From the NCBI GenBank assembly GCA_024679065.1, contig JAGIQG010000009.1, positions 81,778,001 through 81,842,000 on the forward strand: a DNA stretch of 64,000 bases, given 5' to 3'. Every line of letters starts with the position of its first letter. Within the stretch, counting starts at the first letter, position 1. The stretch comes from Sphyrna mokarran (lineage: Eukaryota). A program made the position numbers and the translations under genes. Positions 16,174 through 55,889 of this stretch are shown here, piece by piece. The notes below the pieces were generated by a model. That model did no database searches. It saw nothing but the letters and a program-made list of their open reading frames with translations, and had not been told where the DNA came from.

Positions 16174-16222
16174 ATGATTTCAGCCATCCAGCTGCTCTGG
16201 CCTCTGGCATTCTGCATCGCAG
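16174..16222 (+). CDS. IGKV: Ig kappa-type light chain cluster 1, leader exon (MISAIQLLWPLAFCIA-G)
   Basis: ACCATGA start context, hydrophobic signal peptide, phase-1 GT donor at 16223 matching the V exon acceptor; identical to the cluster 2 leader. Confidence 0.95.
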
Positions 16223-16408
16223 GTACTAATCTCTCTCCTTCCACCTTGAATATTTTCCTGCTCTCCATTTCAATCCAATTCTCCTGACTTGTGATTGAAG
16301 GGAAAATGCTGAAAGGAGAGGAACAGTCAGTGTCTTCAACAATATCTCATTGTACAGCCTCTTTCTGTGATAGTTCTCACTTCACTCTGTTTCTCTATTA
16401 CCCCTCAG

Positions 16409-16708
16409 GTATCAATGGGGAGATCATCATGACCCAGACTCCCGCGGTGCTGTCAGTGAGCCTGGGCCAGACCGCCACCATTACCTGTACGGCCAGTCAA
16501 GGCATTAGCGATGATTGTGCCTGGTACCAACAGCGAGAAGGACAGAAACCGGCTCTGCTGATCTATGAGGCAACATATCGATTCACAGGAGTATCTGACC
16601 GATTCACCGGCAGTGGATCTGGGACAAGATTCACCCTGACAATCAGCAATGTTCAGAATGAGGATGTCGCTGATTATTACTGTCAGCAAGATAACAGCTG
16701 GCCCCTTA
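16409..16708 (+). CDS. IGKV: Ig kappa-type V exon, cluster 1 ([12 protein letters not shown]...C..WYQQ...[15 protein letters not shown])
   Basis: cccctcAG acceptor at 16407-16408; Cys23, Trp35 (WYQQ) and DxAxYYC motifs; directly followed by a 12-RSS. Confidence 0.97.
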
Positions 16709-16736
16709 CACAGTGATACAGAGCCTTACAAAAACC
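16709..16736 (+). other. V1 recombination signal sequence, 12-bp spacer
   Basis: CACAGTG + atacagagcctt (12 nt) + ACAAAAACC, perfect consensus; V-12/J-23 is the kappa-type configuration. Confidence 0.98.
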
Positions 16737-16741
16737 CCAAC

Positions 16742-16912
16742 ACACACAGCACCACCTCCTGTACTGACACATCCCACAGTTTTATATAATATATAATAAT
16801 GGACACACAGTCCCACCTCCTGTACTGACACATCCCACAGTTTTATATAATATATAATAATGGACACACAGTCCCACCTCCTGTACTGACACATCCCACA
16901 GTTTTGTATAAT
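16742..16912. repeat. 61-bp minisatellite, ~3 copies, in the V1-J1 spacer
   Basis: Unit acacacagtcccacctcctgtactgacacatcccacagttttatataatatataataatgg. Confidence 0.95.
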
Positions 16913-17180
16913 AATTAACAAACACAGGAAAGGAAACTGAACAAATTCTTTGCACTGTCCACTACACACTCCAGTCCCTGTGGTGTCTACCGCTCACTGA
17001 AGGCCTCGAGTTTCCCTCTTACTCTTCATGTTCGCATATGAAGAGTGGCTGAAAGATTTATCATCTCAAATTAAAATTCTCAACTCTCTCAATAAAACAC
17101 AGAGACATTCAGGGAAACAGGGAGAGAGAAAGAGTGAGAGAGAAAGAGATGAGTGAGTGAGTGAGTGAGTCAGAGACAGA

Positions 17181-17219
17181 GGTTTTTGTACAGCTCCTGC
17201 ACTGGAAGCTGTCAGTGTG
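17181..17219 (-). other. J1 recombination signal sequence, 23-bp spacer
   Basis: GGTTTTTGT (17181-17189) + 23 nt + CAGTGTG (17213-17219; one mismatch from CACTGTG, CAC core intact). Confidence 0.96.
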
Positions 17220-17254
17220 CCTTACGTTTGCTAAAGGAACCAAACTCAGAATGA
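17220..17254 (+). CDS. IGKJ: Ig kappa-type J segment, cluster 1 (LTFAKGTKLRM)
   Basis: Follows the 23-RSS; F-A-K-G variant of FGxG, then GTKL; GTAAGT donor at 17255, phase 1, in frame with C1. Confidence 0.93.
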
Positions 17255-17775
17255 GTAAGTAAAGTCCAATCCTCCGTTATTAACCCTTTCAATGCTGAAA
17301 CTTTCTCAAACACAAATACTGAATAGTTGAAGGTGTTAGTGAGGAAGTTGCAGTCAATGAAATGGTTGATTGAAGAACATTGTGTAGAACAGGGAGTCCA
17401 GCTGTTTTTCTTTCCTTCCATTCCCCTCTTTAAACAGCAAGATTTCAGTAAGCAGCTTTTACCCACCGTGTGGAGGAGATCTGGACGTTTGCAGACTGTG
17501 TTCACATTCCTGCAGCATGGAGTGAAATCACTCTCTAGACTCCTGTCGGTCTCAGTGTGACACAGACAGGCAGAGTTTGATGTGAAGTAGAACTCTCTGT
17601 CTCACTCTCTGATATAACTGATCACAGCAGCAGCACAGTGAGACACCGAGGTGCCACCTGCCCCAGCTTTCACTCTGCTCTCTCCACTCCCTGCTTATCT
17701 CTTGCTGAAGTTCTGATGACAAACAGCCACAGCAGGGCTCACAATCCAGTGGCTTCAGTGTTCCAGGCTTTTGTT
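17255..17775. promoter_or_regulatory. Candidate J-C intronic enhancer, cluster 1
   Basis: Non-repetitive block almost identical to 48825-49345; GAGGAAGT (ETS) 17341, CAGCTG 17399, CCACCTGCC (kE2-type E-box) 17654-17662. Confidence 0.55.
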
Positions 17776-18648
17776 TCTTTCTCTTTGGGATGAGTTCAAT
17801 CTGACATTTTCCCAAATCCAACGTCACTGGAAATGCTGATTGTTCTCATTGCTGTGTGTGGGATCTTGCTGTGTACATGTTGTGACCAGTCCTCAGACAG
17901 GATCCCTGATTTGTTAACTTCCTGAACTGGATCCCAATTTTGTTTTCCTCTGAATGAGGAATAATCAGCTGGAATCCTACCCTCGATTGGTCACAACAGG
18001 ATTCATTTAAAATGGATCCTTTCACGGTGGAAATCTTACACCGTCCGTGTAGTTTTTTATTAGCCATTGAATCTCTACAGTGCAGGAGGAGGATATTCAG
18101 TCCATCAGCAGAATTATGAGAGACAGAGATAGGGTAGATATGAGGAAACTTTTCCCGTTAATCACAGAGGCAGCAGATTTTGAGAGGCGTGAGGGAAATC
18201 TTTTCATCCAATTGTCCAAAAGAGCTTCTTACCCAGGCTCCCTGTAACCCTGCACACTTACCATTGCTAACCCACCTAAAGAACACACTAGGGGCAATTT
18301 AGCATGGCCAATCCATCTGACCTGCAGACTTTTGTAATTACTCAGAGGGTAGTGAGGGTGTGGAATGCCCTGCCTGCAGCAGCTGTGGACTCACCAATTT
18401 TAAAGGCATTCAAATGGTCAGTGGATATGGATAATATTGGAATAGTTTAGGTTAGAGGGTCATTAGATTGGTTTCACTGGTCGGTGCAACATCGAGGGCC
18501 GAAGGGCCTGTACTGCGCTGTAATGTTCTATGTTCTATGCACATTGGAATTTTCCAGAAGTTGGTCACTTTATATTCTCAGCCATCTTGGCTCAGTCCGA
18601 GTGCTGTAGAAATTTACAGCACAGAAAGAAGCCTATCCTGTATCCTGT

Positions 18649-18906
18649 ATTTCCACCGTGAAAGGATCCATTTTAAATGAATCCTGTTGTGACCAATCGA
18701 GGGTAGGATTCCAGCTGATTATTCCTCATTCAGAGGAAAACAAAATTGGGATCCAGTTCAGGAAGTTAACAAATGAGGGATCCTGTCTGAGGACTGGTCA
18801 CAACATGTACACAGCAAGATCCCACACACAGCAATGAGAACAATCAGCATTTCCAGTGATGTTGGATTTGGGAAAATGTCAGATTGAACTCATCCCAAAG
18901 AGAAAG
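18649..18906 (-). repeat. 258-bp inverted duplicate of 17777-18034
   Basis: Reverse-complement match with ~2 mismatches; flanked by direct repeat aagcctatcctgtatc (18629-18644, 18904-18919). Confidence 0.95.
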
Positions 18907-20224
18907 CCTATCCTGTATCTGCTGGCCATCAAGCTCCTAACTATTCTAATAGCATTTTCAAACACTTGGTCAGTAGCCTTGTATGCTTTGGAAGTTCAAA
19001 TGCTCATGTAAATATTTCTTAAATGTTGTGACGGTTCCTGCCTCTAGTACCCTTTCAGGTAGTGAGTTCCAGATTCCCAACACCCTCTAAGCGAAAAAGT
19101 TTTTCCTTCAATCCCTCGAAATCTTCTGCTTCTGAAATTAAATCTATGCTCCCTGGTTTTTGAATCTACTGCTAAAAGGGAAAAAGTTCTTTCGCATCTG
19201 TTCTATATCTTCATAATTCGGACCTGCTGCGGTTATACAGGACTTTGGTGAGGCAGCACTGGGAATATTGTGCACAGTTTTGGTCTCCCTATCTCAGGAA
19301 GGATATTTTTGCTGTAGAGGAAGTGCAGAGAAGGTATCCCAGACAGCTTCCTGCTGTAATGGGACTGATGTATGAGGAGAGATTGAGTTGGTTAAGACTT
19401 ATATTCACTGGAGTTCAGAGGAAGCAAATGAAGAGAAATGAGGAAGTAACTCATGGAGACTTATAAAATTCGAACAGGTTAGGGGGAATAGTGAGATAAA
19501 TACATGGGGTTTATGGGGTAAGAGTTGATGGAGACTCGATGAGCTGAATGGTCTCCATCTGCACTTTAGAGATTCTATTGTCCATGTCTGTGCTGGCCAT
19601 TAAGCATCTATCTATTGTAATCACATTTTCCAGCATTTGGTCCGTTGCTTTGTTTGCTTTGTAATTTCAAGTGCTCATCTAAATGCTTCTTAAATGTTGT
19701 GAAGGTTCCCACCTCCGCCATCCTTTCAGGCAGTGAGTTCCAGATTCCCAGCACCCTCTGGGTGAAAAGATTTCCCTCAATTCCCTCAGAATCTGCTGTC
19801 TCTGTGATTAAGGGGAAAAGTTTCCTTTGGAAAGAGTTCAGAGATGGTTCACGAGGCTGATTCCACTGAGTAAGGGATTGTCTTAGGAGGAAAGCTGGAG
19901 TAAGTTGGGCTGATACTCATTAGAATAGAACTTATTCCACCACCTCAGCACCATCTTCACCAGGGCAATTAGGGATGGATGATAAACACTGGTCTGCATA
20001 GAATCACAGCAAGTATCTCCCCTATCCCTGTCCCTAGTAATTCTGTCTTTCTGCAGTTATACAGGGCCTTGGTGAGACCACACTGGGAATAATGTGCACA
20101 TTTTTATGTCCTTATCTGAGGAAGGATGCTTTTGCGACAGAGGAAGTGTAGCAAATCTTTACTGGAATGATTTCTGTGATAGTGAGATTGATGTTGGAGG
20201 AGAGATTGCATTTTTTTCTCAGTT

Positions 20225-20515
20225 TATTTATTAGTCACAAGTAGGCTTACATTCACACTGCAATGAAGTCATTGAGAAAATACCCACATGGCCACATTCT
20301 GGTGCCTCTTCTGAAGGAGAATTTAGCTTGGCCAATTCACCTAACCTGCACACCTTTTGGACTGTGGGAGGAAACTGTAGAACCTGTAGGAAACCTATGC
20401 AGACATGGGGAGAATGTGCAAACTCCACACAGACAGTGAGCCAAGCTGGTAATTGAACCTGGGTCCCTGGCACTGTGAGTCAGCAGTGCCAAGCACTGTG
20501 TCACCGTGCTGCCCC
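20225..20515 (-). mobile_element. V-SINE (HE1-like) in the J1-C1 intron; paralog at ~51155-51455
   Basis: Reverse complement of the tRNA head (ggcagcacggtg...) and V-domain. Confidence 0.82.
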
Positions 20516-23500
20516 CACTGCAGTTCAGAAGAATGAGGGAGATCACAGAAAAACCTATAAAATTCCAACAGGATTAGTCAGGAGAGATATACGAAGCATC
20601 CAGTATGAAATATCATAGTCTGGGAATATGGGGTAAACCTTTTAGGACTGAGGTGAGGAGAAATTCCTTCACCCAGTGAGGGGTAAACCTGTGGAATTCA
20701 CTATCACAGAAAGCAGTTGAGGACAAAATATTGTACATTTTCAAGAAGGAGTTAGATGTATCTCTTGACATGAATAGGATGAAATAATTTGACGGGGAAG
20801 GCAGGAATTGACTACTGATTGGATGATCAGCCATGACCATGATGAATAGTGGAACAGGCTCAAAGGGCCAAATGGCCTATTCCTGTTCCTATTTCCTGTG
20901 ATTCTCTGCAGACCAGTATTTATCACCCATCCCTAATTGCCCTGGTGAAGATGGTGCTGAGGTGATGGAATAAGTTCTACTCCAATGAGTATCAGCCCAA
21001 CCTGCTCAACCTTTCCTCATAAGACAATCCCTTACTCGGTGGAATCAGCCCAGTGAACCATCTCTGAACTCTTTCCAATTCTACTATATCTTTCCTTAAG
21101 TACGGAGACCCTAAGTGTCCACAATATTCTCAGTGTGATTTTCCCAGTGTGCTGGTGCAAAACATCCCTCCTTTTATACTCATCCTCATTGGAATGAAGA
21201 GCAACATTCCATTTGTCTTCCTAATATTTTTCTGTTCCTGGATGCAAACACACCCAGATCACTCAATAGAATTTCACCAGTTTACTAGTATTCTGCTCTA
21301 TTCTCCTGCCAAAGTGGACAACCTCGTTTTCCCACATTATTCTCCATCTGTCGATGTTTCCCCACTCACTGAACCGATCTCTATCCCTTTTCAGACTCTG
21401 TATCCTCCTCACAACATGCATTTCTACTTTTCATTTTATCATCAGCAAGTTTAGTGACATTCCTCTCATTCCTTTCATCCAGCTCATTAATATAGATTGT
21501 AGAGTTAAACCCCAAACAACAACCATCTTCCTTTGTGCCGGGTACAACTCCAACCAGTGGAGAGTTTTCCCCTGATTCCCATTGGCTCCAGTCTTGTGAG
21601 GGCTCCTTGATGCCACACTTGCTGAAATGCTGCCTTGATGTTAAGGACAGTCTCTCTCACCTCACCTCTGGAGTTCAGCTCTTTTGTCCATGTTTGAAAC
21701 AAGACTGTAATGAGATCAGGAGCTGAGTGATCCTGGTGAACACAAACTGAGTGTCAGTGAGCAGATTATTGCTGAGTAAGTGCTGCTTGGTATCGCTCTG
21801 GATATGTTCAGATCACGTTGCTGATGATTGAGAGTAGACTGATGGGGTGGTTATTGTGTAGATTGGATTTGTCCTGTTTTTTGTGCAGAGTTCATAACCG
21901 GGTAGTTTGTTACAATGTTGTGTTGATGCCAGTGTTGTAGATGTACTGGAACAGCTTGGTTAGGGACACGGAAAGTTCTGGAGCACAAGTCTTCAGGGCC
22001 TCTGGAGGAGGTTGAGATGGATCATCCACTCAGAACTTCTGGCTGAAGATTCCGGCAAATGCTTCAGCCTTATCTTTTGCACTGATGTGCTGGGTTCCTC
22101 CATCATTGAGGGTGGAGATATTTGTGGTGCCTCCTCCTCCAGTGAGTTGTTTAATTGTCCACCATCATTCACGGCTGGATGTGGCAGGACTGCAGAGCTT
22201 AGATCTGATCCATTGGTTGTGGGATGGTTTAACTCTGTCTATCACTTGCTGCTTTGCTGATTGGCACACAGTCATAGCTTGTTGTAGCTTCACCAGGTTA
22301 ACACCTCATTTTTCAGTCTGTCTGTTGTTGCTCCTGGCATGTCCTCCTGCACTCTTCATTGAACTGAAAGCAGCAGAGAATCCACAGAAACAGACTGATG
22401 TTTGTCTGATGTGTCTGCGTGTTTATTAGATGTGACTGAGCAGATAGCAAGAGTTTCAGCAGCAACAAAGATGTTTCTCTAGTTCACCTCCCACTTTCCC
22501 CATCCATTTCCAAACTCTTCATGGGGAAAGGGCCAGCACCTGTCATATCCCCCCTCTAAACTACAGGCCTCCCATCTTTCAGATGAGACAATCTGATATC
22601 TGCCCTCTCAGGGGGTGTAAAAGATCCCATGGTACTATTGGAAGAAGAGCAGGGAAGTTCACCCCGGTGAACTGGTTAATATTCATCCCTCAATCAACAT
22701 CACCAGAAATTTGCTTATCTGTTCTTTCTCACTCTGCTCCCTGGGATCTTGCTGTGCACAATGAGCTGTAAAACACATTGGGACATTCTGAGGTGGTGTC
22801 AGGTGCTATAGAAATGTAATTCTGTCTGTGAGGTTGGAGATTCCGAATCCTGACTCTCTCCCATTGATAACATAAAAGCACCCTCCAGAGTTCATGGGGT
22901 CGTTCGGAGCAGTGACCCTGTCTGACCCCTGGACACTGAGACTAATTCTAGCCTCACCCTTGACCTCAGCCCAGTGCTGGACAGTAAGGTTTGAAATGAA
23001 ATCTCAAAGTTTCTACACCAGCCAATGGGAATCCTGTGTGCTGTGTTGATCCAAGTCTGCTCTAATGTTCTGGGATAAAGTTCTCCTGATCTGTGTGTGA
23101 TCTGAGGTTTCTTGATGCTCAACCTGTTTCCCCCAGACAGACTGAGCAATAGTTCCAGCTTCCTGATTGGTTAACAGTCTCTTAAAGGGACACTGTGTCT
23201 TTAAATACTCTCAAAATTAACCATTTCAGTGCTGAATTTGTAGTAATCTTCTTTACAGTTTCAGTAACATTGCAAAATGATTCAACCGGCTTCAAATCAA
23301 ACCTTTTCCCTCAGACACTGAACTAATTTAAAATCGAATGTGCCACTTTCCCTTGGATTCCATCAGCTTTTAATTTTGAAAAGCATGATCCATCCTCCAG
23401 TCCACCTACACTAACACCTGTACCCAGAGAGGATTGGAAAATAATGGTCAGAGTCTCTATTATTTCTTCCTGTTCTTCCCTTCACATCCTGGGATATATT

Positions 23501-24485: not shown

Positions 24486-24864
24486 AGTGTTAGAGACAGT
24501 CCACAGAGGAGACAGAACTTGGAATAGAACAGGGGTGAGCTGGGAGGATAAAGGTCATTGTCAGCATTGAATTACAATTCTCTTCCTTCCTGGGACTGGG
24601 TCTGAGACACTTCTGAGGGTCAGGGGTTAAAGAACATTGTTGGGATATTGTAGAGGGAGCTTTACTCTGTATTAACCCCGTGCTGTTCCTTTATTGGGAA
24701 TGCTGAAGACTGTCAGCTGTACAAAAATAATGTGACCCTCTGAAGTATCTGCTTCAGTAAACCAGACCTCCTTCCTGCTCACCCTGCAGTTACAATTGAA
24801 GATTTAGTCACTGTTTAAAGGGACAGGATTCTCATGTTAATGAGAAAATCTCCACAAGTGTTTT

Positions 24865-24965
24865 AATAAACCTCCATTCTCCCTGTGAATTTCTCCAGCT
24901 TCCTCTGGCTGGGCAGTTTATTCAAGTCTTTTTTCTGTCAATGTCAATGTGTAAAAGGTAATAAA
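24865..24965 (+). terminator. Candidate polyadenylation signals, cluster 1
   Basis: AATAAA at 24865-24870 and 24960-24965, both conserved in cluster 2. Confidence 0.7.
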
Positions 24966-25410: not shown

Positions 25411-25434
25411 ATCAATGACACATCAGCAGAAGAT

Positions 25435-26515: not shown

Positions 26516-26835
26516 GTGGCACAGTGGTTAACACTGCTGTCTAACAGCTCCAAGGACCTGGGCTTGATTCCCAATTTGGATCACTGTGGAATTTGCACAT
26601 TCTCCCCGTGTCTGCATGGATTTTCTTTGGGTACTCTGGTTTCCTCCCACAATCAAAGATGTGTGGGTTAGGTTCATTGGCCATGATAAATTGCCCCTTC
26701 GTGTCCCGGGATGTGAAGGTTAGAGAGATTAGTGAGGTAAATGTGTGGGGTCGCAGAAATAGGACGTGGGATGGGATTGTTGATGGTGTAGATTTGATGG
26801 GCCAAATGGACTCCTTCTGCACATTAGGGATTCTG
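26516..26835 (+). mobile_element. tRNA-derived V-SINE (HE1-like); paralog at 266-575
   Basis: A box gtggcacagtgg, B-box-like, central tgtggaatttgcacattctccccgtgtctgc domain. Confidence 0.85.
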
Positions 26836-27545
26836 TGGAAAATGATTTAACCCCTTCAGAACCACTGTTATTTTCTACTTGGGGACAGGAGATCTGATAT
26901 GGACACACAGATCAATAAGAATCTGACCTTTCAGCAAGTGACCTTTGAGATGCAAAGATGTTATCTACGATAAAGAATATGTGTTAATAAACATGTGGGA
27001 CTTTCGATCTGGATACAAAGCTACACACATCAGGAAGAGGGAGTTTCAATTTTGATAGTGGAAATTATAATTCTGACAAAGTTTAAAGGTTCAGGTTTGG
27101 GTCCTGAAAATGTTCTCAACAGGAAATATTTATTATAGAAGGTTTGACAACAATTGACACAAATCCAAATGCTGAAAGCTTCTGTGCCGAAAGAAGAGTT
27201 TAAAATGTGTTTCTCTTCCCAAAATGTAAACCCAAAAGTTTAATGGATGCAATTTGTAGTAGGTTAAAGAAGGCAGCTCAACAATAAAACTATTCGTATC
27301 TGGAATCATTTTAAAATCACCAGCAACAATCTCCAGAGTTACTTTTGAGAGAATAGAATGTTGTTTGAGGTGTTCAGACCCACACAGATGTTAAATGTGA
27401 AAGGATCTCAAAGCTCAGAATGGGAACATGGAACACTGGTTCTTAGTGCTGTAGATTTTCACTTTAGTATCCTGTGAGAAAAGTGTGTGAACCAGGGAGA
27501 AATAGTCCAGTCTTTGTGTGAACAATTAATACAGAATATTCATTC

Positions 27546-28276: not shown

Positions 28277-31200
28277 ATCATAAGGAGGCTTACCGGTAGT
28301 TGTAGTTTTTCTCTCTGACCCTATAAATTGGTACAAAGAGGAAACCCGATACTCTACACAGGTAGAGTATCCCGCCCTCCCCCCTCCTCTAACCTAATAA
28401 TAAAAGTGAGTGGGAAGATATTTTTTTCTCTCTCCTGGAAATTGAAGTATCAGAGATGGCAGTACAGGCAGTAGATTGCGCCTCCTGCGGTATGTACGAG
28501 GTGAGGGACACCAGTAGTGTTCCTGCTGATTATACCTGCAGGAAGTGTGCCCATTTGCAGCTCCTTGAGGATCGTGTTAAGGAGCTGGACTGGAATTAGA
28601 GGAACTCCGGATAATTCGGGAGATTGAGGCGGATATTGACAGGAGTTACAAAGAGATAGTCACTCCTAAAAGAGATTCTTGGGTAACTATTAGGAAGAGG
28701 GGTAAGAAGCAATCGGGGAGACAATCCCCCAGGGCTGTTCCCCTCCAAAATAAGTTTGCTGTCCTGGAGGCTACAGTTGAGGAAGAATCAACTGGAGATA
28801 GCCAAAGGGAGCAGATCTCTGGGGGTGAGCCTGCTGTGAATGCTCAGGTGGGTAGGAGAAATAAGAGATTGGGCCTGGTAATTGGAGACTCCATAGTTAG
28901 GGGGACAGTTGGAGAGTAAATAGTAATGAACGGGACTCAGGGCTGGTGTGTTGCCTCCCAGGGGCCGGGCTCCGGGACGTCTCAGAGTGGGTGTTCAAGA
29001 TTCTTAAGGGAGAGGGGAGTCAGCCCCAAGTCATAGTTCATGTAGGGACACATAATGTAGGTAGGACAAGGGAAGGGGATATTAAACAGAAATTTATGGA
29101 GTTGGGGTGGAAACTTAGGGCCAAAACAAACAGAGTGGTTATCTCTGGACTCTTGCCGGTGCCACGGGATAGTTTAGAGAAGAACAGAGAGAGGGAATGT
29201 TTCAACTCGTGGCTACAGGGATGGTGCAGGAGGGAGGGGTTCAGGTTCTTGAACAATTGGGGCTCATTCTCGGGTAGGTGGGACCTCTATAAGAGAGATG
29301 GTCTACACCTGAACCACAGGGGAACCAATATCTTGGGGGGAAATTTGTAAAGGCTATGCAGGGGGGTTTAAACTGATTCAGAGGGGCGGTGGGATCTTGA
29401 GTAGCTTGGATGTTAGGAGGGACGAGAATAGGGGGGTCATAGACGATGACTGTGAAGCACAGCAGCGTATGGGTGAAGTAGAGCATAGTTTGAAATGCAT
29501 ATACTTTAATGCAAGGAGTATTCGCAATAAGGTGGAGGAACTTGCAGTTTGGATCAGTACCTGGAACTTCGATGTTGTGGCCATTTCAGAGAATGGAAAG
29601 AGCAGGGACAGGAGTGGTTGTTGCAGGTTCCGGGGTTCAAATGCTTCAGTCGGAGTAGAGAAGGAGGTAGAAGGGGCGGAGGAGTGGCATTATTAGTCAA
29701 AGACTGTATCACAGTGACAGAAAGGAAGTTTGATGAGGACTTGTCTGTTGAGGTAGTATGGGCTGAGATTAGAAACAGGAGAGGAGAGGTCACCCTGTTG
29801 GGAGTCTTTTATAGACCTCCTAAAAGTTCTAGAGAGGTAGAGGAAAGGACTGCAAAGTCGATCCTGGACAGGAGTGAAAGTAATAGGGTAATTGTTATGG
29901 GGGACTTTAACTTTACTAATATTGATTGGAATAGCTATAGCTCTAGCTTGTTAGAGGGGTCAGTTTTTATACAAAGTGTGCAGGAAGGTTTTTTGACTCA
30001 GTATGTAGATAGGCCAACTAGAGGTGAGGCTACATTGGATTTGGTGCTGGGCAATGAGCCAGACCAGGTGTTAGACTTGGAAGTTGGTGAACATTTTGGT
30101 GATAGTAACCACAATTCGGTTACGTTCACCTTAATGATGAATAGGAATAGGCATGAAGCTGGGGGCAGTAGTTATAGCTGGAGGAATGGTAATTATGAGG
30201 CTATTAGGAGAGAATTAGGGTGCATAGGTTGGAGTAGGAAACTACAGGGACTGGGAATATCTGAAATGTGGAGCTTATACAAGGAGCAGCTACTGCGAGT
30301 CCTTGATAAGTATGTCCCTGTCAGGCAGGGAGGAAATGGTCGAGTAAGGGAACCATGGTGTACTAAAAAAGTTAATTTGCTGGTTAAAAGGAAAAAGGAG
30401 GCTTATGTCAGGATGAGGCTTGAAGGCTCAGTTAGTGCACTGGAAAGCTATAGATTAGCCAGGAGGGAGCTAAAGAGTGAGTTGAGAAGAGCTAAAAGAG
30501 GACACAAGAAGACTTTGGCTGATAGGATCAAGGAGAATCCTAAAGCTTTCTTTAGATATGTTAAGAATAGAAGATTGGTTAGGGCAAGATTAAGGCCAGT
30601 CAGAGACAGCAGTGGGAAGTTGTGCGTGGAGCCTGAAGAGATTGGAGAGGCACTGAACAAATATTTCTCTTCGGTATTCACGCAGGGAGATATAAATGTA
30701 GTTGTGGAGAACACTGGGATACAGGGTTGTAAACTGGAAAGTATTGAAGTAGATAAGGAGGATGTGCTAGATATTCTTGAGGGTTTGAAGTTAGATAAGT
30801 CCCCTGGGCCGGACGGGATTTACCCTAGGATTCTCTGGGAGGCGAGAGAGGCGATTGCAGAGCCTCTGGCTCTGATCTTCAGGTCGTCGTTGGTTACAGG
30901 TATAGTGCCGGAAGACTGGAGGATAGCGAATGTGGTCCCATTGTTCAAGAAGGGGAAGAGAGACTTTCCTGGGAATTATAGGCCGGTGAGTCTTACTTCT
31001 GTTGTGGGCAAAGTATTGGAGAGAATTATTAGGGATAGGATTTATAGTTATTTAGAGAGAAATGAATTGATTGGGGATAGTCAGCATGGTTTTGTGAAGG
31101 GTAGGTCGTGCCTTACTAACCTTATTGAGTTTTTTGAAAAAGTGACCAAAGAGGTGGATGGGGGTAAGGCAGTTGATGTGGTATATATGGACTTTAGTAA

Positions 31201-32349
31201 GGCGTTCGATAAGGTGGCACATGGAAGGCTTCTGCAGAAAATGCAGATGTATGGGATTGAGGGTGATTTAGCTAATTGGATTAGGAATTGGCTAGCTGAT
31301 AGAAGACAGAGGGTGGTGGTTGATGGAAATTATTCATCATGGAGTTCGGTTACAAGTGGTGCACTTCAGGGATCTGTTTTGGGGCCCCTGCTGTTTGTAA
31401 TTTTTATGAATGATCTGGATGAGGGTATTGAAAGATGGATTAGTAAATTTGCGGATGACACCAAAGTCGGAGGAGTGGTAGATACTGAATAGGGGTGTTA
31501 TAGTTTGCAGAGAGACTTGGACAAGTTGCAGAGCTGGGCCAAAAGGTGGCAAATGGAGTTAAATGCAGATAAGTGTGAGGTAATTCACTTTGGCAGGAAT
31601 ACCAAATGTGTAGAGTATAGGGCTAATGGTAGAACTCTTAATAGTGTTGATGAACAGAGGATCTTGGTTTATATGTGCATAGATCCCTGAAAGTTGGCAA
31701 TCAAGTCGATAAGGTTATTAAGAAGGCATACGGAGTCTTAGCTTTTATTGGTAGGGGAATTGAATTTTGGAGCCGCAACATCATGTTGCAACTGTACAAA
31801 ACTCTGGTGCGGCCGCACTTGGAGTATTGTGTACAGTTCTGGTCGCCACATTATAAGAAAAATGTGAAGACATTGGAGAGGGTGCAAAGGAGGTTTACCA
31901 GGATGTTGCCTGGTACGGAGAGCAGGTCTTATGAAGAGAGGCTGAGGGATTTGAGGTTGTTTTCATTAGAAAGAAGGCGGCTAAGAGGAGACCTTATTGA
32001 AACATATAAGATGATTAGAGGTATAGATAGGGTAGACAGTGATAGCCTTTATCCTAGGATGGAGAAAGCTAGCACGAGGGGACATAGCTTTAAATTAAGG
32101 GGTGGTAGTTATAGGACGGATGTCAGAGGTAGGTTCTTTACCCAAAGGGTGGTAAGGGTATGGAATGCCCTGCCTGCTGCAGTTGTAGATGCGCCAAGTT
32201 TGGGGGCATTTAAGTGGTCAGTAGATAGGTTTATGGATGAAAAGGGAATGGTTTAGGTTAGAGGGTCATTGCTTTTTCTAAATTGGTCGGCGCAACATCG
32301 AAGGCCAAAGGGCCTGTTCTGCGCTGTAATGTTCTATGTTCTATGTTCT
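28277..32349 (+). mobile_element. Near full-length CR1-type LINE, decayed (ORF1 zinc finger/coiled coil + SGNH esterase; ORF2 APE endonuclease + RT), nested in an older antisense CR1
   Basis: ORF1 from ATG 28456 (CASC...CRKC; VIGDS; VHVGT; DGLHLN); ORF2 [30 protein letters not shown]; frameshifts and a stop at 31490-31492; (TTCTATG)n tail; ctaccc at both ends. Confidence 0.95.
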
Positions 32350-39839: not shown

Positions 39840-39975
39840 ATTCAGACCACAGCACAAATCCCCAGTGTCAAAAATAACTGCAAAGACTGTCAGATCGGAA
39901 GATTGAAACGTAACCGACAGAGGAAGTGAAAGAAGGAGCTCAGAGCAGCTGGATGTTTGTTACTGAGACGGGAGA
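39840..39975 (+). promoter_or_regulatory. EICE-containing non-coding element upstream of V2
   Basis: Near-identical to 10430-10565; GGAAGTGAAA 39922-39931. Confidence 0.5.
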
Positions 39976-41109
39976 AAATGGTGAACCGTGTTCACTATCT
40001 CCAATCTCCCAGCACAGAAGGCACAGTGGGATACAGTCAGGAGGGAGTTATCCTGGGACATCACTGCAGGAGTTCCTCAGGGTCGTGTCTGAGACACAAC
40101 CATCTTCAGCTGCTTCAGTAATGACCTTCAGAAGTGGGGATGTTCACTGATGATTGCACAATGCTCAGCACCATTCACAACTCCTCAGATATTGAAGCAG
40201 TAACATTCATGCCACATCAGTACCACGGAATCACCATCTCCAACAAGAGAGAATTTTAACATCTCCCCTTGACATTCAATGTCATTACCATCGCTGAATC
40301 CCCCACTGTAAAATCCTGTTGGTTATGATTGACCAGAAACTGAACTGGACCAGCCTATAAATAGAGTGGCTATTTATAGCCACAAGAGAAAGTCAGTGGA
40401 TAGGAATCCTGCAGTGAGTAACTCACATCCTGACTCTCCAAAGCCTCTCCACCATCTACAAGGCACAAGTCTGGAGTATGATGGAATACTCTCCACTTGT
40501 CTGGATGAGTAGAGCTGCAGCAACACTCAAGAAGCTCAACATCATCCAGAACAAATCAGCCCACTTGATTGTCACCCCATTCACAAACATTAAATCCCTC
40601 CACCACTGTCGAACAGTGGCAGCAGTGTGTGCCATCTATAAGTTCATGCCCTGCATGAACTCAACAAGGTTCCTGAGGCAGCACCTTCGAAACCCATGAC
40701 CACTATTATCTGGAAAGACAAGTGTAGCAGATCCCTGGGATCAACATCACCAGGAGATTCCCCTCCAAGCCACATGCCATTCTGAAATGGAAATACATCT
40801 CTGTTCATGCACTGTCGCTGGGTCAGAATCCTGGAAATCCCTCCCTAACAGCACTGTGGGTGTATGTACACCTCATGGACTGCAGTGGTTCAAGAAGGCA
40901 GTTCATCATCACCTTCTCAAGGACAATTAGGGATGGGCAATAAATGTTGAGATAGCCAGTAACACCCACATCCCGTCAATGAATACATTTTTAATAATTC
41001 CTACTTTACACAATGTCCCATTCTGTGTGTTGAAGTCTGGATCCTGTCAGCAGAATATTTGACTGCAAGAGCCTTCACCACTGTCCCCAACCAAAATCCA
41101 CATAGAACC

Positions 41110-47225: not shown

Positions 47226-47319
47226 GGAAGTGAAAGGTGCTGACGTGGTTTCTCTGGGTCAGACCATTTACAAACTGAGGAACAGGCAGTGAGACTCTCA
47301 CAGGCTGCAGCTTTATAAA
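47226..47319 (+). promoter_or_regulatory. V2 promoter: EICE, CRE/UPRE-like motif, degenerate octamer, TATA
   Basis: GGAAGTGAAA 47226-47235; TGACGTGG 47241-47248; ATTTACAA 47266-47273; TATAAA 47314-47319. Confidence 0.75.
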
Positions 47320-47379
47320 GCAGAGCCCAGTGAAGGGAGAGTTTATCAGTAACCAGGCACAGGGACACGAGCACACACC

Positions 47380-47428
47380 ATGATTTCAGCCATCCAGCTG
47401 CTCTGGCCTCTGGCATTCTGCATCGCAG
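47380..47428 (+). CDS. IGKV: Ig kappa-type light chain cluster 2, leader exon
   Basis: Identical to the cluster 1 leader; GT donor at 47429. Confidence 0.95.
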
Positions 47429-47610
47429 GTACTAATCTCCTTCCACCTTGAATATTTTCCTGCTCTCCATTTCAATCCAATTCTCCTGACTTGTGATTGA
47501 AGGGAAAATGTTGAAAGGAGAGGAACAGTCAGTGTCTCCAACAATATCTCATTGTACAGCCTCTTTCTGTGACAGTTCTGAATTCACTCTGTTTCTCTAT
47601 TACCCCTCAG

Positions 47611-47909
47611 GTATCAATGGAGAGATCATCCTGACCCAGACCCCCGCGGTGCTGTCAGTGAGCCTGGGCCAGACCGCCACCATCACCTGTACGGCCAGTG
47701 AATATGTCAGCGATGATGTGCATTGGTATCAACAGCGAGAAGGACAGAAACCGGCTCTGCTGATGTATGATGCATCAACTCGATTCACAGGAGTATCCGA
47801 CCGATTCACTGGCAGTTACCAATACAACACATTCACGCTTACGATCAGCAATGTTCAGAATGAGGATGTTGCTGATTATTACTGTCAGCAAGATTACAGC
47901 CCCCCCCTA
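47611..47909 (+). CDS. IGKV: Ig kappa-type V exon, cluster 2 (EIILTQTP...[16 protein letters not shown]...[10 protein letters not shown]...[11 protein letters not shown])
   Basis: AG acceptor at 47609-47610; canonical Cys/Trp/YYC; followed by a 12-RSS. Confidence 0.97.
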
Positions 47910-47937
47910 CACAGTGATACAGAGCCTTACAAAAACC
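47910..47937 (+). other. V2 recombination signal sequence, 12-bp spacer
   Basis: CACAGTG + 12 nt + ACAAAAACC, identical to the V1 RSS. Confidence 0.98.
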
Positions 47938-47942
47938 CCAAC

Positions 47943-48478
47943 ACACACAGTCCCACCTCCTGTACTGACACATCCCACAGTTTTATATAATATATAATAA
48001 TGGACACACAGTCCCACCTCCTGTACTGAAACATCCCACAGTTTTATATAATATATAACAATGGACACACAGTCCCACCTCCTGTACTGACACATCCCAC
48101 AGTTTTACATAATATATAATAATGGACACACAGTCCCACCTCCTGTACTGACACATCCCACAGTTTTATATAATATATAATAATGGACACACAGCCCCAC
48201 CACCTGTACTGACACATCCCACAGTTTTATATAATATTTAATAATGGACACACAGTCCCACCTGTACTGACACATCCCACAGTTTTATATAATATATAAT
48301 AATGGACACACAGTCCCACCTCCTGTACTGACACATCCCACAGTTTTATATAATATATAATAATGGACACACAGTCCCACCTCCTGTACTGACACATCCC
48401 ACAGTTTTATATAATATATAATAATGGACACACAGCAACACCTTCTGTACTGACACATCCCACAGTTTTATATAATAT
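47943..48478. repeat. 61-bp minisatellite, ~9 copies, in the V2-J2 spacer
   Basis: Same unit as 16742-16912; nine consecutive copies visible. Confidence 0.97.
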
Positions 48479-48750
48479 CTAAGAAACACAAGAAAGGAAA
48501 CTGAACAAACTCTTTGCATCGTCCACTACGCACTCCAGTCCCTGTGGTGTCCACTGCTCATTGAAGTCCTCGAGTTTCCTTCTTACTCTCCATGTTCACA
48601 TATGAAGAGCAGCTGAAAGATTTATCATCTCAAATTAAAATTCTCAACTCTCCCAACAAAACACAAAGACATTGAGAGAAACAGAGAGAGAGAAAGAGTG
48701 AGAGTGAAAGAGTGAGAGAGAAAGAGATGAGTGAGTGAGTCAGAGACAGA

Positions 48751-48789
48751 GGTTTTTGTACAGTTCCTGCACTGGAAGCTGTCAGTGTG
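48751..48789 (-). other. J2 recombination signal sequence, 23-bp spacer
   Basis: GGTTTTTGT (48751-48759) + 23 nt + CAGTGTG (48783-48789). Confidence 0.96.
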
Positions 48790-48824
48790 CCTTGCGTTCG
48801 GTAAAGGAACCAAACTCAGACTGA
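48790..48824 (+). CDS. IGKJ: Ig kappa-type J segment, cluster 2 (LAFGKGTKLRL)
   Basis: Canonical FGKG-TKL; GTAAGT donor at 48825. Confidence 0.96.
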
Positions 48825-49345
48825 GTAAGTAAAGCCCAATCCTCCGTTATTAACCCTTTCAATGCTGAAACTTTCTCAAACACAAATACTGAATAGTTGA
48901 AGGTGTTAGTGAGGAAGTTGCAGTCAATGAAATGGTTGATTGAAGAACATTGTGTTGAACAGGGAGTCCAGCTGTATTTCTTTCCTTCCATTCCCCTCTT
49001 TAAGCAGCAAGATTTCAGTAAGCAGCTTTTACCCACCGTGTGGAGGAGATCTGGACGTTTGCAGACTGTGTTCACATTCCTGCAGCATGGAGTGAAATCA
49101 CTCTCTAGACTCCTGTCGGTCTCAGTGTGACACAGACAGGCAGAGTTTGATGTGAAGTAGAACTCTCTGTCTCACTCTCTGATATAACTGATCACAGCAG
49201 CAGCACAGTGAGACACCGAGGTGCCACCTGCCCCAGCTTTCACTCTGCTCTCTCCACTCCCTGCTTATCTCTTGCTGAAGTTCTGATGACAAACAGCCAC
49301 AGCAGGGCTCACAATCCAGTGGCTTCAGTGTTCCAGGCTTTTGTT
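48825..49345. promoter_or_regulatory. Candidate J-C intronic enhancer, cluster 2
   Basis: Paralog of 17255-17775; ETS site 48911, kE2-type site 49224-49232. Confidence 0.55.
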
Positions 49346-50094
49346 ACTTTCTCTTTGGGATGAGTTCAGTCCGACATTTATCCTGGATCCAACGTTACTG
49401 AAAATGCTGATTGTTCTCATTGCTGTGTGTGGGATCTTGCTGTGTACATGTTGTGACCAGTCCTCAGACAGGATCCCTCATTTGTAAACTTCCTGAACCG
49501 TATCCCAATTTTGTTTTCCTCTGGGTAAGGAGTAATCAGCTGGAATCCCACCCTCGATTGGTCACAACAGGGTTCATTTAAAATGGATCCCTTCATCAAT
49601 GGAAACCTTAAACAATCCACGTAGCCCTTTATTAGCCATTGAATCCCTACAGTGCAGAAAAAGGCTATTCAATCCGTCAATTTTGCACCGACTCTCCAAA
49701 AGGCGTTCTTATCCAGGCTCCCCATCCTGTCCCTGTAACCCTGCACATTTACCATTACTAATCTCCCTAATGAACACAGTAGGGATAACTTATCATGGCC
49801 AATCCATAACCTGTATATCCCATTTTCCAACACTTGATCCATTACCTTGTCAGCTTTGGAATTTCAAATGCTTATCTAAATACTTCTTAAATGTTGTGAG
49901 GGTTCCTGCCTCTAGTACCCTTTCAGGTAGTGAGTTCCAGATTCCCAACACCCTCTGAGTGAAAAGGTTTTTCCTCCAATCCCTCAAAATCTTCTGCTTC
50001 TGAAATTAAATCTAGGCTCCCTGGTTTTTGAATCTACTGCTAAAAGGGGAAAGTTCTGCTCTATGTCTTCATAATTCTGACCTGCTACAGTTAT

Positions 50095-50361: not shown

Positions 50362-53300
50362 CTGCTGCAGTTATACCGGGCTTTGGTGAGGCAGCACTGG
50401 GAATATTTGTGCGCAGTTTTAGTCCCCCTATCTCAGGAAGGATATCTTTGCTCTCAAGAAAGTATTAGAGAACATACCCCAGACTGATTCCTGTTTTAGT
50501 GGGACTGATGTATGAGGAGATATTGAATTGATTATGACTTATATTCACTGGAGGTCAGAGGAATGAGGGTACAACTACTAGAAACCTGTTAAATTCGAAC
50601 AGGTTAGGGGAAATAGTGAGGTAAATACATGGGGTTCATGGGTTTAAGAGTTGATGCAGACTCGATGGGCCGAATGGTCTCCGACTGCACTTTAGAGATT
50701 CTATTGTCCATGTCTGTGCCGGCCATTAAGTATCTATCGATTCTAATCCCATTTTCCAGCATTTGGTCCGTTGCTTTGTTTGCTTTGGAATTTCAAGTGC
50801 TCATCTAAATGCTTCTTAAATGTTGTGAAGGTTCCCACCTCCGCCATCCTTTCAGGCAGTGAGTTCCAGATTCCCAGCACCCTCTGGGTGAAAAGATTTC
50901 CCTCAATTCCCTCAGAATCTGCTGCCTCTGTGATTAAGGGGAAAAGTTTCCTCATATCTACCCTATCCCTGTCCCTTGTAATTCTGTCTTTCTGCAGTTA
51001 TACAGGGCCTTGGTGAGACCACACTGGGAATAATGTGTACAGTTTTATCTCCTTATCTGAGGAAGAATGTTTTTGGTACAGAGAAAGTGCAGCAAATGTT
51101 TACTGGAATGATTTCTGTGACAGTGAGATCAACATAGGATGAGAAATTGTTTAAGTTTATTTATTAGTCACAAGTAGGTTTATGTTCACACTGTCATGAA
51201 GTCACTGTGAAAATCCCCATGCAGCCATATTTCGGCGCCTGTTCTGGTATACTGAGGAAGAATTTAACTTGGCCAATTCACCTAACCTGCACACTTTTTG
51301 GACTGTGGGAGGAAACCGGAGCACTTGGAGGAAACCCATGCAGTCATGGGGAGGATGTGCAAACTCCACACAGACAGTGAGCCAAGATGGCAATTGAATC
51401 TGGGTCCGTGGCACTGTGAGGCAGCAGTGCTAATCACTGTGTCACCGTGTTGCCCCACTGGCAGAAGAATGAGCGGGGATCACATAAAAACCTATAAAAT
51501 TCCAACAGGACTAGTCAGGATAAATACAGGAAGCATGTTCCCAATGCTGGAAGCGTCCAGTTTGAGGCATCATAGTCTGAGAATATGGGGTAAACCCTTT
51601 TAGGACTGAGGTGAGGAGAAATCCCTTCACCCAGAGAGGGATAAACCTGTGGAGTTCACTATCACAGAAAGCAGTTGAGACCAAAATATTGTACGTTTTC
51701 ACAAAGAAGTTAGATTTAGCTCTTGGGGTGAATGGGATGAAAGGATTTGTTGGAGAAGGCAGGATCTGGCTACTGATTGGATGATCAGCCATGATCATGA
51801 TGAATAGTGGAACAGGCTCAAAGGGCCAAATGGCCTATTCCTGTTCCTATTTCCTGTGATTCTCTGCAGACCAGTATTTATCACCCATCCCTAATTGCCC
51901 TGGTGAAGATGGTGCTGAGGTGTTGAAGTTCTACTCCAATGAATATCAGCCCAACCTGCTCAAGCTTTCCTCATAAGACAATCCCTTATTCATCAATCTT
52001 CTCTGAACTCTTTCCAATGCTACTATATCCTTCCTTAAGTATGGAGACCAAAAGTGGCCACAATATTTCATGTATGATTTTCCTAAAGTGTTGTATGGGT
52101 GGAGTAAGGCATCCCTCCTTTTATACTCATCCTCATTGGAATGAAGAGCAACATTCCATTTGCCTTCTGAATTTTTTGCTGTTCCTGGATGCAAAGACAC
52201 CCAGATCACTCGATAGGATTTCTCCAGTTAACTAGTATTCTGCTCTATTCTCCTGCCAAAGTGGACAACCTCACATTTTCCCACATTATTTTCCATCTGT
52301 TGATGTTTCCCCACTCACTGAACCGATCTCTATCCCTTTTCAGACTCTGTATCCTCCTCACAACATGCATTTCTACTTTTCATTTTATCATCAGCAAGTT
52401 TAGTGACATTCCTCTCATTCCCTTCATCCAGCTCATTAATATAGATTGTAGAGTTAAACCCCAAACAACAACCATCTTCCTTTGTGCCGGGTACAACTCC
52501 AACCAGTGGAGAGTTTTCCCCTGATTCCCATTGGCTCCAGTTTTGTGAGGGCTCCTTGATGCCACACTTGCTGAAATGCAGCCTTGATGTTAAGGACAGT
52601 CTCTCTCACCTCACCTCTGGAGTTCAGCTCTTTTGTCCATGTTTGAACCAAGACTGTAATGAGATCAGGAGCTGAGTGACCCTGGTGAACATAAACTGAG
52701 TGTCAGTGAGCAGATTATTGCTCAGTAAGTGCTGCTTGGTATCGCTCTGGATATGTTCAGATCACATTGCTGATAATCGAGAATAGACTGATGGGGTGGT
52801 TAATGTGTAGATTGGATTTATCCTGTTTTTTGTGCACAGTTCATAACCAGGTAATTTATCACAATGTTGTGTTGATGCCAGTGTTGTAGATGTACTGGAA
52901 CAGCTTAGTTAGGGACACGGAAAGTTCTGGAGCACAAGTCTTCAGGGCCTCTGGAGGAGGTTGAGATGAATCATCCACTCGGAACTTCTGGCTGAAGATT
53001 CTGCAAATTCTTCAGCCTTGTCTTTTGCAGTGATGTGCTGTGCTACTCCATCATTGAGGATGGGAATATTTGTGGTTCTTCCTCTTCCAGTGGATTGTTT
53101 AATTGTCCACCACCATTCACGACTGGATGTGACAGGACTGCAGAGCTTAGATCTGATCCACTGGTTGTGGGATGGTTTAACTCTGTCTATCACTTGCTGC
53201 TTCTGCTGTTTGTCACACAGTCTCTGTATTGTAGCTTCACCAGGTTAACACCTCATTTTTCAGTCTGTCTGTTGTTGCTCCTGGCATGTCCTCCTGCACT

Positions 53301-54196
53301 CTTCATTGAACTGAAAGCGGTAGAGAATCCACAGAAACAGACTGATGCTTCAAATCTCACTCCTGATACTTGAGCACATCATCCAGGCTGAGATTGCAGT
53401 GCACTATTGAAAGAGTGCTGCACTGTCAGAGGTGCCATCTTTCAGATGAGACGAACAGATATCTGCCCTCTCAGGGGGTGTGAAAAATCCCACGATACTA
53501 TTGGAAGAAGAGCAGGGGAGTTCACCCCGGTGAACTGGTCAATATTCATCCTTCAATCAACATCACTACAAATCTGTTCTTTCTCATTCTGCTCCCTGGG
53601 ATCTTGCTGTGCCCAATGAGCTGTAAAACACATTGGGACATTCTGAGGTGGTGACAGGTGCTATAGAAATGTAATTCTGTCTGTGAGGTTGGAGATTCCT
53701 GATCCTGACTCTCTCCCATTGATAACATAACAGCATCCTTCAGAGTTCATGGGGTCATTCGGAGCAGTGACCCTGTCTGACCCCTGGACACTGAGACTAA
53801 TTCTAGCCTCACCCTTGACCTCAGCCCAGTGCTGGACAGTAAGGCTTGAAATGAAAACTAGAAGTTTCTACACCAGCCAGTGGGAATCCTGTGTGAAGTG
53901 TGTTGATCCAAGTCTGCTCCAATGTTCTGGGATAAAGTTCTCCTGATCTGTGTGTGATCTGAGGTTTGTTGATGCTCAACCTGTTTCCCCCAGACAGACT
54001 GAGCAATAGTTCCAGCTTCCTGATTGGTTAACAGTCTCTTAAAGGGACACTGTGTCTTTAAATACTCTCAAAATTAACCATTTCAGTGCTGAATTTGCAG
54101 TAATCTTCTTTACAAATGTTTCAATAACATTACAAAATGATTCAACCAGCTTCAAATCAAACCTTTACCCTCAGACACTGAACTATTGAATGACTC

Positions 54197-54672
54197 AGGC
54201 ATTGGAAAGGCCGCAGAGGAGGTTTACCAGGATGTTGTCTGGTATGGTGGGAAGGTCTTAATGAGGAAAGTCTGAGGGACTTGAGGTTATTTTCATTAGA
54301 GAGAAGAAGGTTAAGAGGTGATCTAATTGAGGCATACAAGATGATCAAAGGGTTAGATAGGGTGGACAGTGAGAGCCTTTTTCCTCAGATAGAGATGGCT
54401 AACATGAGGGGACATAGCTTTAAATTAAGGGGTGGTAGTTATAGCACAGATGTTAGAGGTGGGTTCTTTACTCAGAGGGTAGTAAGGACGTGGAATGCCC
54501 TGTCTGCAGCAGTTGTGGACTCGCCAAGTTTAAGGGTGTTCAAATGGTCAGTGGATAGGCATATGGATAATATTGGAATAGTTTAGGTTAGAGGGTCATA
54601 AAATTGGTTCCACTGGTCAGTGCAACATCGAGGGCTGAAGGGCCTGTACTGCGCTGTAATGTTCTATGTTCT
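54197..54672 (+). mobile_element. CR1-type LINE 3' fragment in the J2-C2 intron, unit 2-specific
   Basis: ORF 54281-54586; tail; empty site at ~23325. Confidence 0.9.
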
Positions 54673-55560
54673 AATTTGAAATCGAATGTGCCACTTTCCA
54701 TTGGGTTCCATCAGCTTTTAATTTTAAACAGCGCTATCCATCCTCCAGTCCACTCACACCACACTTGTAGCCAGAGAGGATTGGAAAATAATGGTCAGAG
54801 TCTCTGCTATTTCTTCCCTTCCTTTCCCTCGCGCCTTGAGATAATTTCACCCGAGCCTGGGAATTTCTCCATTTTAAAAGATGATAAACACATTAATAAC
54901 TCCCCTCACTCTATCATTATCCCATTAATTATTTCACAATCCCTCTCCTCCTGAAATACAGTATGAACTTTGTCCCTCTCATTTGTGATATCTGATTTAA
55001 ATTATTCATTAAGAACATTTCCATGTCTTCTCCCTCCACACACAAGTTACCTTTTTGCTCTCTAATCAGCCCTATTTAATCCTTAGTTATTCTCTTTGCA
55101 ATGTCCCACACTATTGCTTGATGAACATATATGTCCTGAACTCTATCTCCAGCTCGAATATCCTCCCACTGCTCTGACACTGATTTACCTTCAAGTCACT
55201 GTTCCCTTTCCATTTTGGCAAATTCCAGTTTAGTGAAATTGGCCTTTTCCCATTTAAAACATTTATTCTTGATCAATCTTTCCCCTTTTCTGTAACTACT
55301 CTAAATCTATTATGATCATTATTACCCAAATGCTCTCTCACTGATACACCTTCCACATGCTGAGTTTCATTCCCTAAAACTGCTAAAATTGCCCCTTCCC
55401 TTGTTGGGATTGTTCCGTACTGGTTAAAAACGTTCCCCTGGAATGGATTTTCAGAATTCTGCAACATCGAAACATTGACACTGATTTGATCCCAGTTAAT
55501 ATTCAGGAAGTTGAAACCCTGAAAATGGCAGTGATTAAAATTCCTTCTCTTCTCTTTCAG

Positions 55561-55889
55561 TCCGTGAGAATTCACAACCCACGCTGACCCTGCTGCCCCC
55601 CTCCCCGGAGGAGGTCAAGACCAAGGGCACTGCCACTCTGATGTGCCTTGCCGATCACTTCTATCCCAATGTGTTGGGAGTGAAGTGGAAGAAGGATGGT
55701 ACACCCATTTCTAACGGGGTTCAGACCAGCAACTACCTGCAAGCTTCGGACAACACCTACAGCGTCAGCAGCCTGCTGACCCTCTCTGGCTCTGACTGGG
55801 AGTCCAACGCTCGCTTCTCCTGTGCCCTCACCCACGTGAGCCTCTCCTCTCCCCTCAGCAAGAGTGTCAGGAGTTCAGAATGTGCCTAG
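55561..55889 (+). CDS. IGKC: Ig kappa-type constant exon, cluster 2
   Basis: tttcAG acceptor ending at 55560; open C1-set domain ending SSECA*; 9 amino acid differences from C1. Confidence 0.96.

Follow-up and report, generated by a model that had tools for sequence, protein, structure and literature searches.

Two Ig kappa miniclusters in a tandem array of Sphyrna mokarran, about 31 kb apart, that probably rearrange locally

When two immunoglobulin (Ig) light-chain clusters lie head to tail only about 31 kb apart, does the V segment of the first cluster stay with its own J segment, or can it be joined to the J segment of the second? This question is raised by a stretch of 64,000 nucleotides from the shark Sphyrna mokarran (GenBank assembly GCA_024679065.1, contig JAGIQG010000009.1, positions 81,778,001 to 81,842,000 of the forward strand), referred to below in its whole length as the window, which carries two kappa clusters (V1, J1, C1 and V2, J2, C2). 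The original prediction for this DNA described the pair as a built-in substrate for V1-to-J2 joining and as a semi-translocon. The analysis presented here leads to a different reading, which we consider highly probable: the two units are autonomous kappa miniclusters of an ordinary tandem array with a period of about 31 kb, they rearrange locally, and V1-J2 joining is at most a rare leak.

Both units are intact in the window and share the same orientation and the same order of parts, i.e., leader and V exon with a recombination signal sequence (RSS) of the 12-bp spacer type, followed by a 23-RSS with J and then C (L-V-12RSS/23RSS-J-C), at a repeat period of 31.2-31.6 kb. Each unit holds exactly one L-V, one J and one C exon (1V:1J:1C), and in both clusters the leader, V, J and C exons have open frames and compatible splice phases, with a J-to-C junction phase matching that of P0001, a V-J-C protein from the database that has 97% identity to C1. 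The claim of two intact clusters in the same orientation is thus borne out by open frames, phases and RSS polarity, and the motifs quoted in its support were all found in their places. A scan of both strands for RSS returned only four sites with two mismatches or fewer, namely those of V1, J1, V2 and J2, while chance sites with at most one mismatch were rare in 100 Markov simulations (mean 0.03, maximum 1). V1 and V2 have identical 12-RSS, and the 23-RSS of the two J segments deviate from each other by a single spacer base. None of the four RSS is damaged, and neither an orphan V nor an orphan J is present in the window. Within this window the locus shows no translocon feature (several V sharing a J-C, or a V or J without a partner), nor does it show the inverted V or the several V per cluster of the teleost type.

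The mechanical side of the original prediction is correct. The V1 12-RSS and the J2 23-RSS form a legal deletional pair, satisfying the 12/23 rule with the same polarity, the separation given as about 32 kb proved to be 32,081 bp between the two RSS, and the cluster spacing of about 31 kb is indeed short, being about 4-5 times tighter than that of published shark Ig heavy-chain (IgH) clusters. However, the V1-J1 and V2-J2 pairs are only 511 and 880 bp apart, respectively, from RSS to RSS, and the V1-J2 distance exceeds these 63-fold and 36-fold. Because the RSS are near-identical in both clusters, a partner of equal quality and far closer by is available to V1 and to J2 alike. No spare segment is created either, since every join within a cluster takes a V and a J out of play together, and editing by a downstream J is subject to the same constraint, as that J is still accompanied by its own V. 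With no orphan V or J, with RSS that are intact and near-identical, and with own partners 36-63 times closer, the description of the locus as a built-in substrate or semi-translocon is not supported. As a rough rule, contact frequency scales with distance to the power -1 to -1.5, a relation uncalibrated for sharks or for sub-kilobase distances, and by this rule the long V1-J2 join would occur at about 0.2-3% of the frequency of the short joins.

The benefits expected from such a join are weak as well. Between J1 and J2 there are differences at 4 of 35 nucleotides and in three residues, only one of which lies at the end of complementarity-determining region 3 (CDR3), leaving little combinatorial diversity to be gained. 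Bypassing the supposedly aberrant J1 would bring a similarly small advantage, as its FAKG motif recurs in two of the 23 collected proteins (of 37 in total) that show a J motif, both of them basking-shark gene models, and C2, the more deviant constant region, would come along with the join. A V1-J2 join would in effect exchange an unusual J for an unusual C, because C2 carries six residues seen in no homologue (29-31 compared) and C1 one. Moreover, the unpaired Cys of V1 (16516-16518), two residues before the Trp that closes CDR1, would persist in a V1-J2 join; it occupies a buried CDR1 site that holds V, L, I or A in 29 homologues and is a Cys in none of them.

In local rearrangement, a cluster would become accessible through its own promoter and conserved elements close by, RAG would capture two RSS 0.5-0.9 kb apart, and the spacer between them would be deleted. 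For V1 to join J2, both clusters would have to be open and unrearranged on one chromosome, V1 would have to skip J1, and J2 to skip the perfect 12-RSS of V2. A failed cluster would likely be bypassed by activating another paralogue. Published observations on shark IgH genes agree on joining within clusters: 97 rearrangements in the nurse shark were intra-minilocus, with one possible exception (PMC2435157), the horn-shark cDNAs were reported as intra- and not intercluster products (PMC2191167), and in bamboo-shark IgNAR the V1-J1 pairing reached 96% (PMC8692893). For the mouse Igk locus, strong RSS and transcription have been reported to restrict scanning RAG to the immediately upstream V segments (PMC13190342).

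Several points weigh against purely local joining. The intra-cluster data from sharks considered here all come from heavy-chain clusters spaced about 80 to >200 kb, not from kappa clusters at 31 kb. Since mouse RAG scanning ranges over about 100 kb (PMC13190342), a distance of 32 kb is within that range, and sharks join IgH V to T-cell receptor (TCR) delta D, across linked loci and at longer range (PMC12227049). In zebrafish, Ig light-chain (IgL) clusters recombine with one another by inversion, and the paper describing this proposes short distance as one condition for crossing clusters and names distance as a possible reason for the lack of inter-cluster joining in sharks (PMC3014032). No insulator between the two clusters is shown, because a crude motif scan found no CTCF-like core with one mismatch or fewer in the window; at two mismatches the core, scanned without chance control, matched 30 times. 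The highly conserved blocks described below could, moreover, be gene-conversion tracts instead of regulatory elements. The literature search turned up no study of how far apart shark kappa clusters lie or of joining between them, which is weak evidence of absence as most subscription literature lay outside it, and PMC10529500 and PMC13433984 did not bear on the question. An article of 2017 in J Immunol about exclusion of shark light chains reportedly states in its abstract that the organisation precludes secondary rearrangements deleting a VJ.

Both clusters belong to shark Ig kappa and are of the type III/NS4 split minicluster form, type III and NS4 being older names of shark kappa (PMC5192425). 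The search with C1 gave 33 protein matches among 309 candidates, 24 of the 33 named kappa; identity is 82% with P0025, the kappa chain of the horn shark, and 84-90% with most of the remaining shark proteins that carry a kappa label. Lambda-like names are carried by four of the 33 matches (three from Pristiophorus, one from nurse shark), and these cluster with the kappa set where they appear in the trees, which were built from V and C search matches only and contain no verified shark lambda, sigma or sigma-2 sequences. In these trees V1 and V2 stand together, as do C1 and C2, without starred support, and the kappa C regions group by species. PDB searches returned generic antibody chains only. 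Two of the database proteins, P0001 and P0002, are shark-type rearranged kappa V-J-C proteins filed under the names Aeromonas veronii and Salmonella enterica, on contigs of 507 and 990 bp; these records are likely contaminants or mislabelled. When 10 of the 33 C1 matches were looked up, Chiloscyllium punctatum was found to have 10 kappa accessions, with numbers spanning no more than 61, on a single contig of 135.9 Mb, and Cetorhinus has four on one 105.8-Mb contig, which suggests that kappa arrays are usual in sharks. With several kappa paralogues on the same contig of chromosome scale in these species, such arrays look ordinary, and in its anatomy the present pair is an unremarkable part of one.

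The frameworks and C regions of both copies show purifying selection, with proportions of nonsynonymous (pN) and synonymous (pS) differences of 0.013 and 0.206 in the V framework and of 0.037 and 0.089 between C1 and C2. In the CDRs, pN is 0.257, and the differences between V1 and V2 are concentrated in CDR1-3 and in the DE loop of framework region 3 (FR3). In this loop (47814-47831 in V2, 16612-16629 in V1) all five residues differ between otherwise nearly identical frameworks, and the loop of V2 resembles those of Pristiophorus, Squalus and Heterodontus kappa V. The comparison suggests that the DE loop may be a fourth diversified loop of old age, retained in the duplicates or passed between them. 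The FR3 of nurse-shark NS4 clade III has been described as divergent.

Among the alternatives, the one with most in its favour, although still a tentative one, is that the units exchange sequence without RAG-mediated V-J joining, by germline conversion or unequal crossing-over and possibly by an AID-linked swap of a V onto another C. The patchy identity between the units, the grouping of kappa C regions by species and a V2 DE loop whose five codons are all unlike V1 yet like those of three other shark genera would fit such exchange, and a nurse-shark IgH V has been found expressed on the C of another cluster (PMC4279169). Only two copies are compared here, however, convergence or selection could produce the same DE loop, and the accessible part of that paper describes the C swap for heavy chains, not light chains. 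Exchange of this kind can coexist with local rearrangement. Because the AID-linked route can place a nurse-shark V on another cluster's C (PMC4279169), it also confounds a V1-to-J2 cDNA test. It is unlikely, in turn, that one or both clusters are drifting to low use or pseudogene status in a birth-and-death array, in which case the V1-J2 question would be of little consequence. The Cys of V1, the FAKG of J1, the six unique residues of C2 and the non-consensus octamer-like site of both promoters point that way, but frames, splice sites, RSS and polyadenylation signals are intact, pN lies well below pS in frameworks and C, FAKG recurs in the basking-shark models, and a contig from a relative (X4 record 26, see below) is close to V1 across CDR1, apparently with the Cys codon.

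The semi-translocon, in which a V would join the J of a downstream cluster often enough to add diversity and a leapfrog join would delete a failed or self-reactive VJ, appears less probable still. Its case is made by a pair that is 12/23-legal, of the same polarity and 32 kb apart, by a spacing far tighter than in published IgH arrays and within the mouse scanning range, by the lack of a clear insulator motif, and by flanking homology suggestive of at least three or four units; against this stand the absence of orphan segments, the perfect proximal partner that shields each segment, a gain of about one CDR3-end residue that comes with a more deviant C2, and shark data that so far show intra-cluster joining. 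It is equally doubtful that shark kappa V segments join a downstream-cluster J at several percent, with leapfrog joins deleting the intervening rearranged VJ-C. An assembly artefact, in which both haplotypes of a single cluster were strung one after the other, is hardly credible: multi-copy Ig arrays are generally hard to assemble, but the window contains no N, the units differ by about 10% and carry many unit-specific insertions, the V proteins are only 83% identical, and a third collinear copy starts downstream. Taken together, local rearrangement of two autonomous clusters remains the preferred reading.

Sequencing reads bear on how a V1-J2 product could be recognized. Compared with positions 16100-17300, the best of 24 listed runs (guessed to be RNA) shares 0.24 of the words; as none of them holds half, the runs are probably from relatives. 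Contigs from four of the 24 runs (X1, X2, X4 and X19; three guessed to be RNA, the fourth of unspecified type and extending over introns) were compared over this interval only, and the following results are among the rows listed. The 186-bp GT..AG leader splice is present in the RNA-guess contigs of X1 and X2, and at least seven rows with V-J joints occur in X1, X2 and X4. That J1-type and V1-exact contigs are missing from these rows carries no weight. At 17251 essentially all depth in all four runs has the J2-type letter, and at 17229 this type is read in X1, X4 and X19 and as a minority in X2; the FG codon pair is read in loose ends of X2 and X4, and an unrearranged RSS-J contig of X19 has the J2-type letters at both positions. 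J2-type sequence is thus largely the family norm, and since its letters are common in relatives, a cDNA with V1 and a J2-like J would be no proof of an inter-cluster join without the full paralogue set. Record 26 of X4, a low-depth RNA-guess contig, is three letters off V1 across CDR1 and keeps the Cys codon according to the listed differences, a hint that the V1 type is shared with a relative.

Identity between the clusters peaks in three blocks, each single-copy per unit. It reaches 99.1% in the 225 bp of promoter and leader, 99.0% in the 526 bp with which the J-C intron opens, and 98.9% in a 3' block of 356 bp; a conserved stretch downstream of C1 lies at 24700-24960. In the rest of the unit most 250-bp bins are 84-95% identical, the V-J gaps being about 89% identical over 16950-17199, and identity overall ranges in a patchy manner from 84 to 100%. 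From their conservation, we infer that these blocks may be each cluster's own control elements, the J-proximal block (17255-17780) being a candidate intronic enhancer. The first promoter has an octamer-like site at 16060, 114 bp before the ATG, where an octamer is expected, and with two mismatches to the consensus, and a TATA-like site at 16108; the same non-consensus octamer-like form lies 114 bp before the ATG in the second (47266). A match to an E-box/Kappa-E2-like motif (17654) was not retained, its two matches being one duplicated site and two being reached in 21 of 100 shuffles. An isolated heptamer in V orientation, adjoined by an E-box, lies about 380 bp into each J-C intron (17634 and 49204), within the 99%-identical block. 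Isolated heptamers in a J-C intron call to mind the mammalian intronic recombining sequence, but this assignment was dropped, as they have no nonamer and the heptamer is present 29 times in the window. Shuffled sequences give an expectation of 12.8 heptamers; the excess is probably inflated by duplication, because many are duplicated pairs between the units.

Outside the two clusters, the start of a third unit that had been announced downstream is present only as non-coding homology. Three non-coding blocks (59759-60048, 60527-61008 and 63681-63918) are 78-95% identical to both units and collinear with their upstream flanks, while searches of the window by tblastn and short blastn gave no third leader, V, J, C or RSS there (best other match E 0.19). 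By extrapolation from this collinearity, a third leader is predicted at about 69.7-74.5 kb. At the other end, block 265-1144 is possibly the tail of an upstream unit. Many truncated copies of long interspersed nuclear elements (LINE) related to that in the inter-cluster spacer are inserted at unit-specific places. The J1-C1 intron alone contains a 258-bp inverted duplication (17777-18034 and 18649-18906, 99.2% identical), which is single-copy in cluster 2. A 1-kb non-coding block, single-copy per unit, lies 5-7 kb upstream of each leader (10450-11449 and 39860-40873; 96% identical overall, 98% in parts) and is a candidate enhancer or boundary, or a conversion tract. The coordinates of all features are collected in Table 1.

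Table 1. Features of the two kappa clusters and their surroundings (positions in the window)
Feature	Position	Strand	Remarks
Block downstream-like of a unit	265..1144	+	92% identical to 26524-27400 (downstream of C1)
Putative cluster 1 promoter region	16024..16173	+	149/150 identical to cluster 2
Leader exon 1	16174..16222	+	49 nt, phase 1; 186-bp intron after
V1 exon, V-set	16409..16708	+	open
V1 12-RSS	16709..16736	+	heptamer and nonamer perfect
61-bp minisatellite, V1-J1 gap	16742..16913	+	2.8 copies
J1 23-RSS	17181..17219	-	1 heptamer mismatch, nonamer perfect
J1 (LTFAKGTKLRM)	17220..17254	+	splice donor 17255
J-proximal intron block, cluster 1	17255..17780	+	99% identical to cluster 2 block
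C1 exon, C1-set, 108 aa	24157..24485	+	ECA-stop end; AATAAA at 24865, 24960
LINE endonuclease/reverse-transcriptase frame, inter-cluster spacer	29531..31492	+	653 aa; RVT_1 E 3e-28
Putative cluster 2 promoter region	47230..47379	+	octamer-like site 47266
Leader exon 2	47380..47428	+	same sequence as leader 1; 182-bp intron
V2 exon, V-set	47611..47909	+	open; 83% aa identity to V1
V2 12-RSS	47910..47937	+	same sequence as V1 12-RSS
61-bp minisatellite, V2-J2 gap	47943..48482	+	8.9 copies
J2 23-RSS	48751..48789	-	1 heptamer mismatch; 1 spacer base unlike J1 23-RSS
J2 (LAFGKGTKLRL)	48790..48824	+	splice donor 48825
J-proximal conserved intron block, cluster 2	48825..49350	+	counterpart of 17255..17780
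C2 exon, 108 aa	55561..55889	+	open; AATAAA at 56322, 56417
Non-coding upstream flank, probable third repeat unit	59759..63918	+	sequence homology

The intra-cluster rule for sharks having been drawn, in the papers considered here, from widely spaced heavy-chain clusters, a pair only 31 kb apart, with distinguishable V segments and RSS flanks, makes the leak rate directly measurable for a light chain. A leak near zero would suggest that RAG is actively kept within a single cluster, and with a substantial one a locus of the cluster type would be capable of combinatorial joining and of editing. Downstream joining at several percent, if true, would amount to true receptor editing of a shark light chain and would make kappa arrays intermediate between clusters and translocons.

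Among known systems, NS4 of the nurse shark is closely matched by cluster 1. Briefly, NS4 comprises about 50 genes with a 186-bp leader intron and a V-J gap of 502-524 bp (PMC2193156), and cluster 1 has 186 and 511 bp, respectively. As in NS4 and horn-shark type III, one V, J and C stand in one orientation with V-12RSS and 23RSS-J, and a PstI site lies between the octamer position and the leader, as in NS4 (PMC2193156). Cluster 2 departs from the NS4 values with a leader intron of 182 bp and a V-J gap of 880 bp, the gap being longer than that of cluster 1 because its 61-bp minisatellite has expanded to more than three times as many copies. Unlike in NS4 and type III, physical linkage and a 31-kb period are visible here, the octamer-like site is non-consensus, and neither cluster is germline-joined.

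The shark and ray IgH arrays resemble this locus in that linked clusters of the same isotype, often in the same orientation, each have their own V and J, and they differ from it in spacing and in their D segments, which are absent here. Nurse-shark IgM clusters are 120 to >200 kb apart (PMC2435157) and shark IgW clusters 82 to >200 kb, seven bamboo-shark IgNAR clusters occupy 800 kb (PMC8692893), and the first five stingray IgNAR genes lie about 140-190 kb from start to start, as subtracted from table S1 of PMC12227049. The zebrafish IgL loci likewise consist of closely linked V-J-C light-chain clusters with kappa-type RSS, but they have several V per cluster, often inverted (PMC3014032), whereas here there is one V per J and all joins are deletional. 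Leapfrogging between clusters of mouse Ig lambda has been called extremely rare in the same paper. As in mouse Igk, deletional joining of a V-12RSS to a J-23RSS over tens of kilobases is mechanically possible, and the nearest strong RSS dominates (PMC13190342). In mouse Igk, however, the primary join leaves the downstream J without a V of its own, whereas in the 1V:1J cassettes of the shark each unused J keeps its V.

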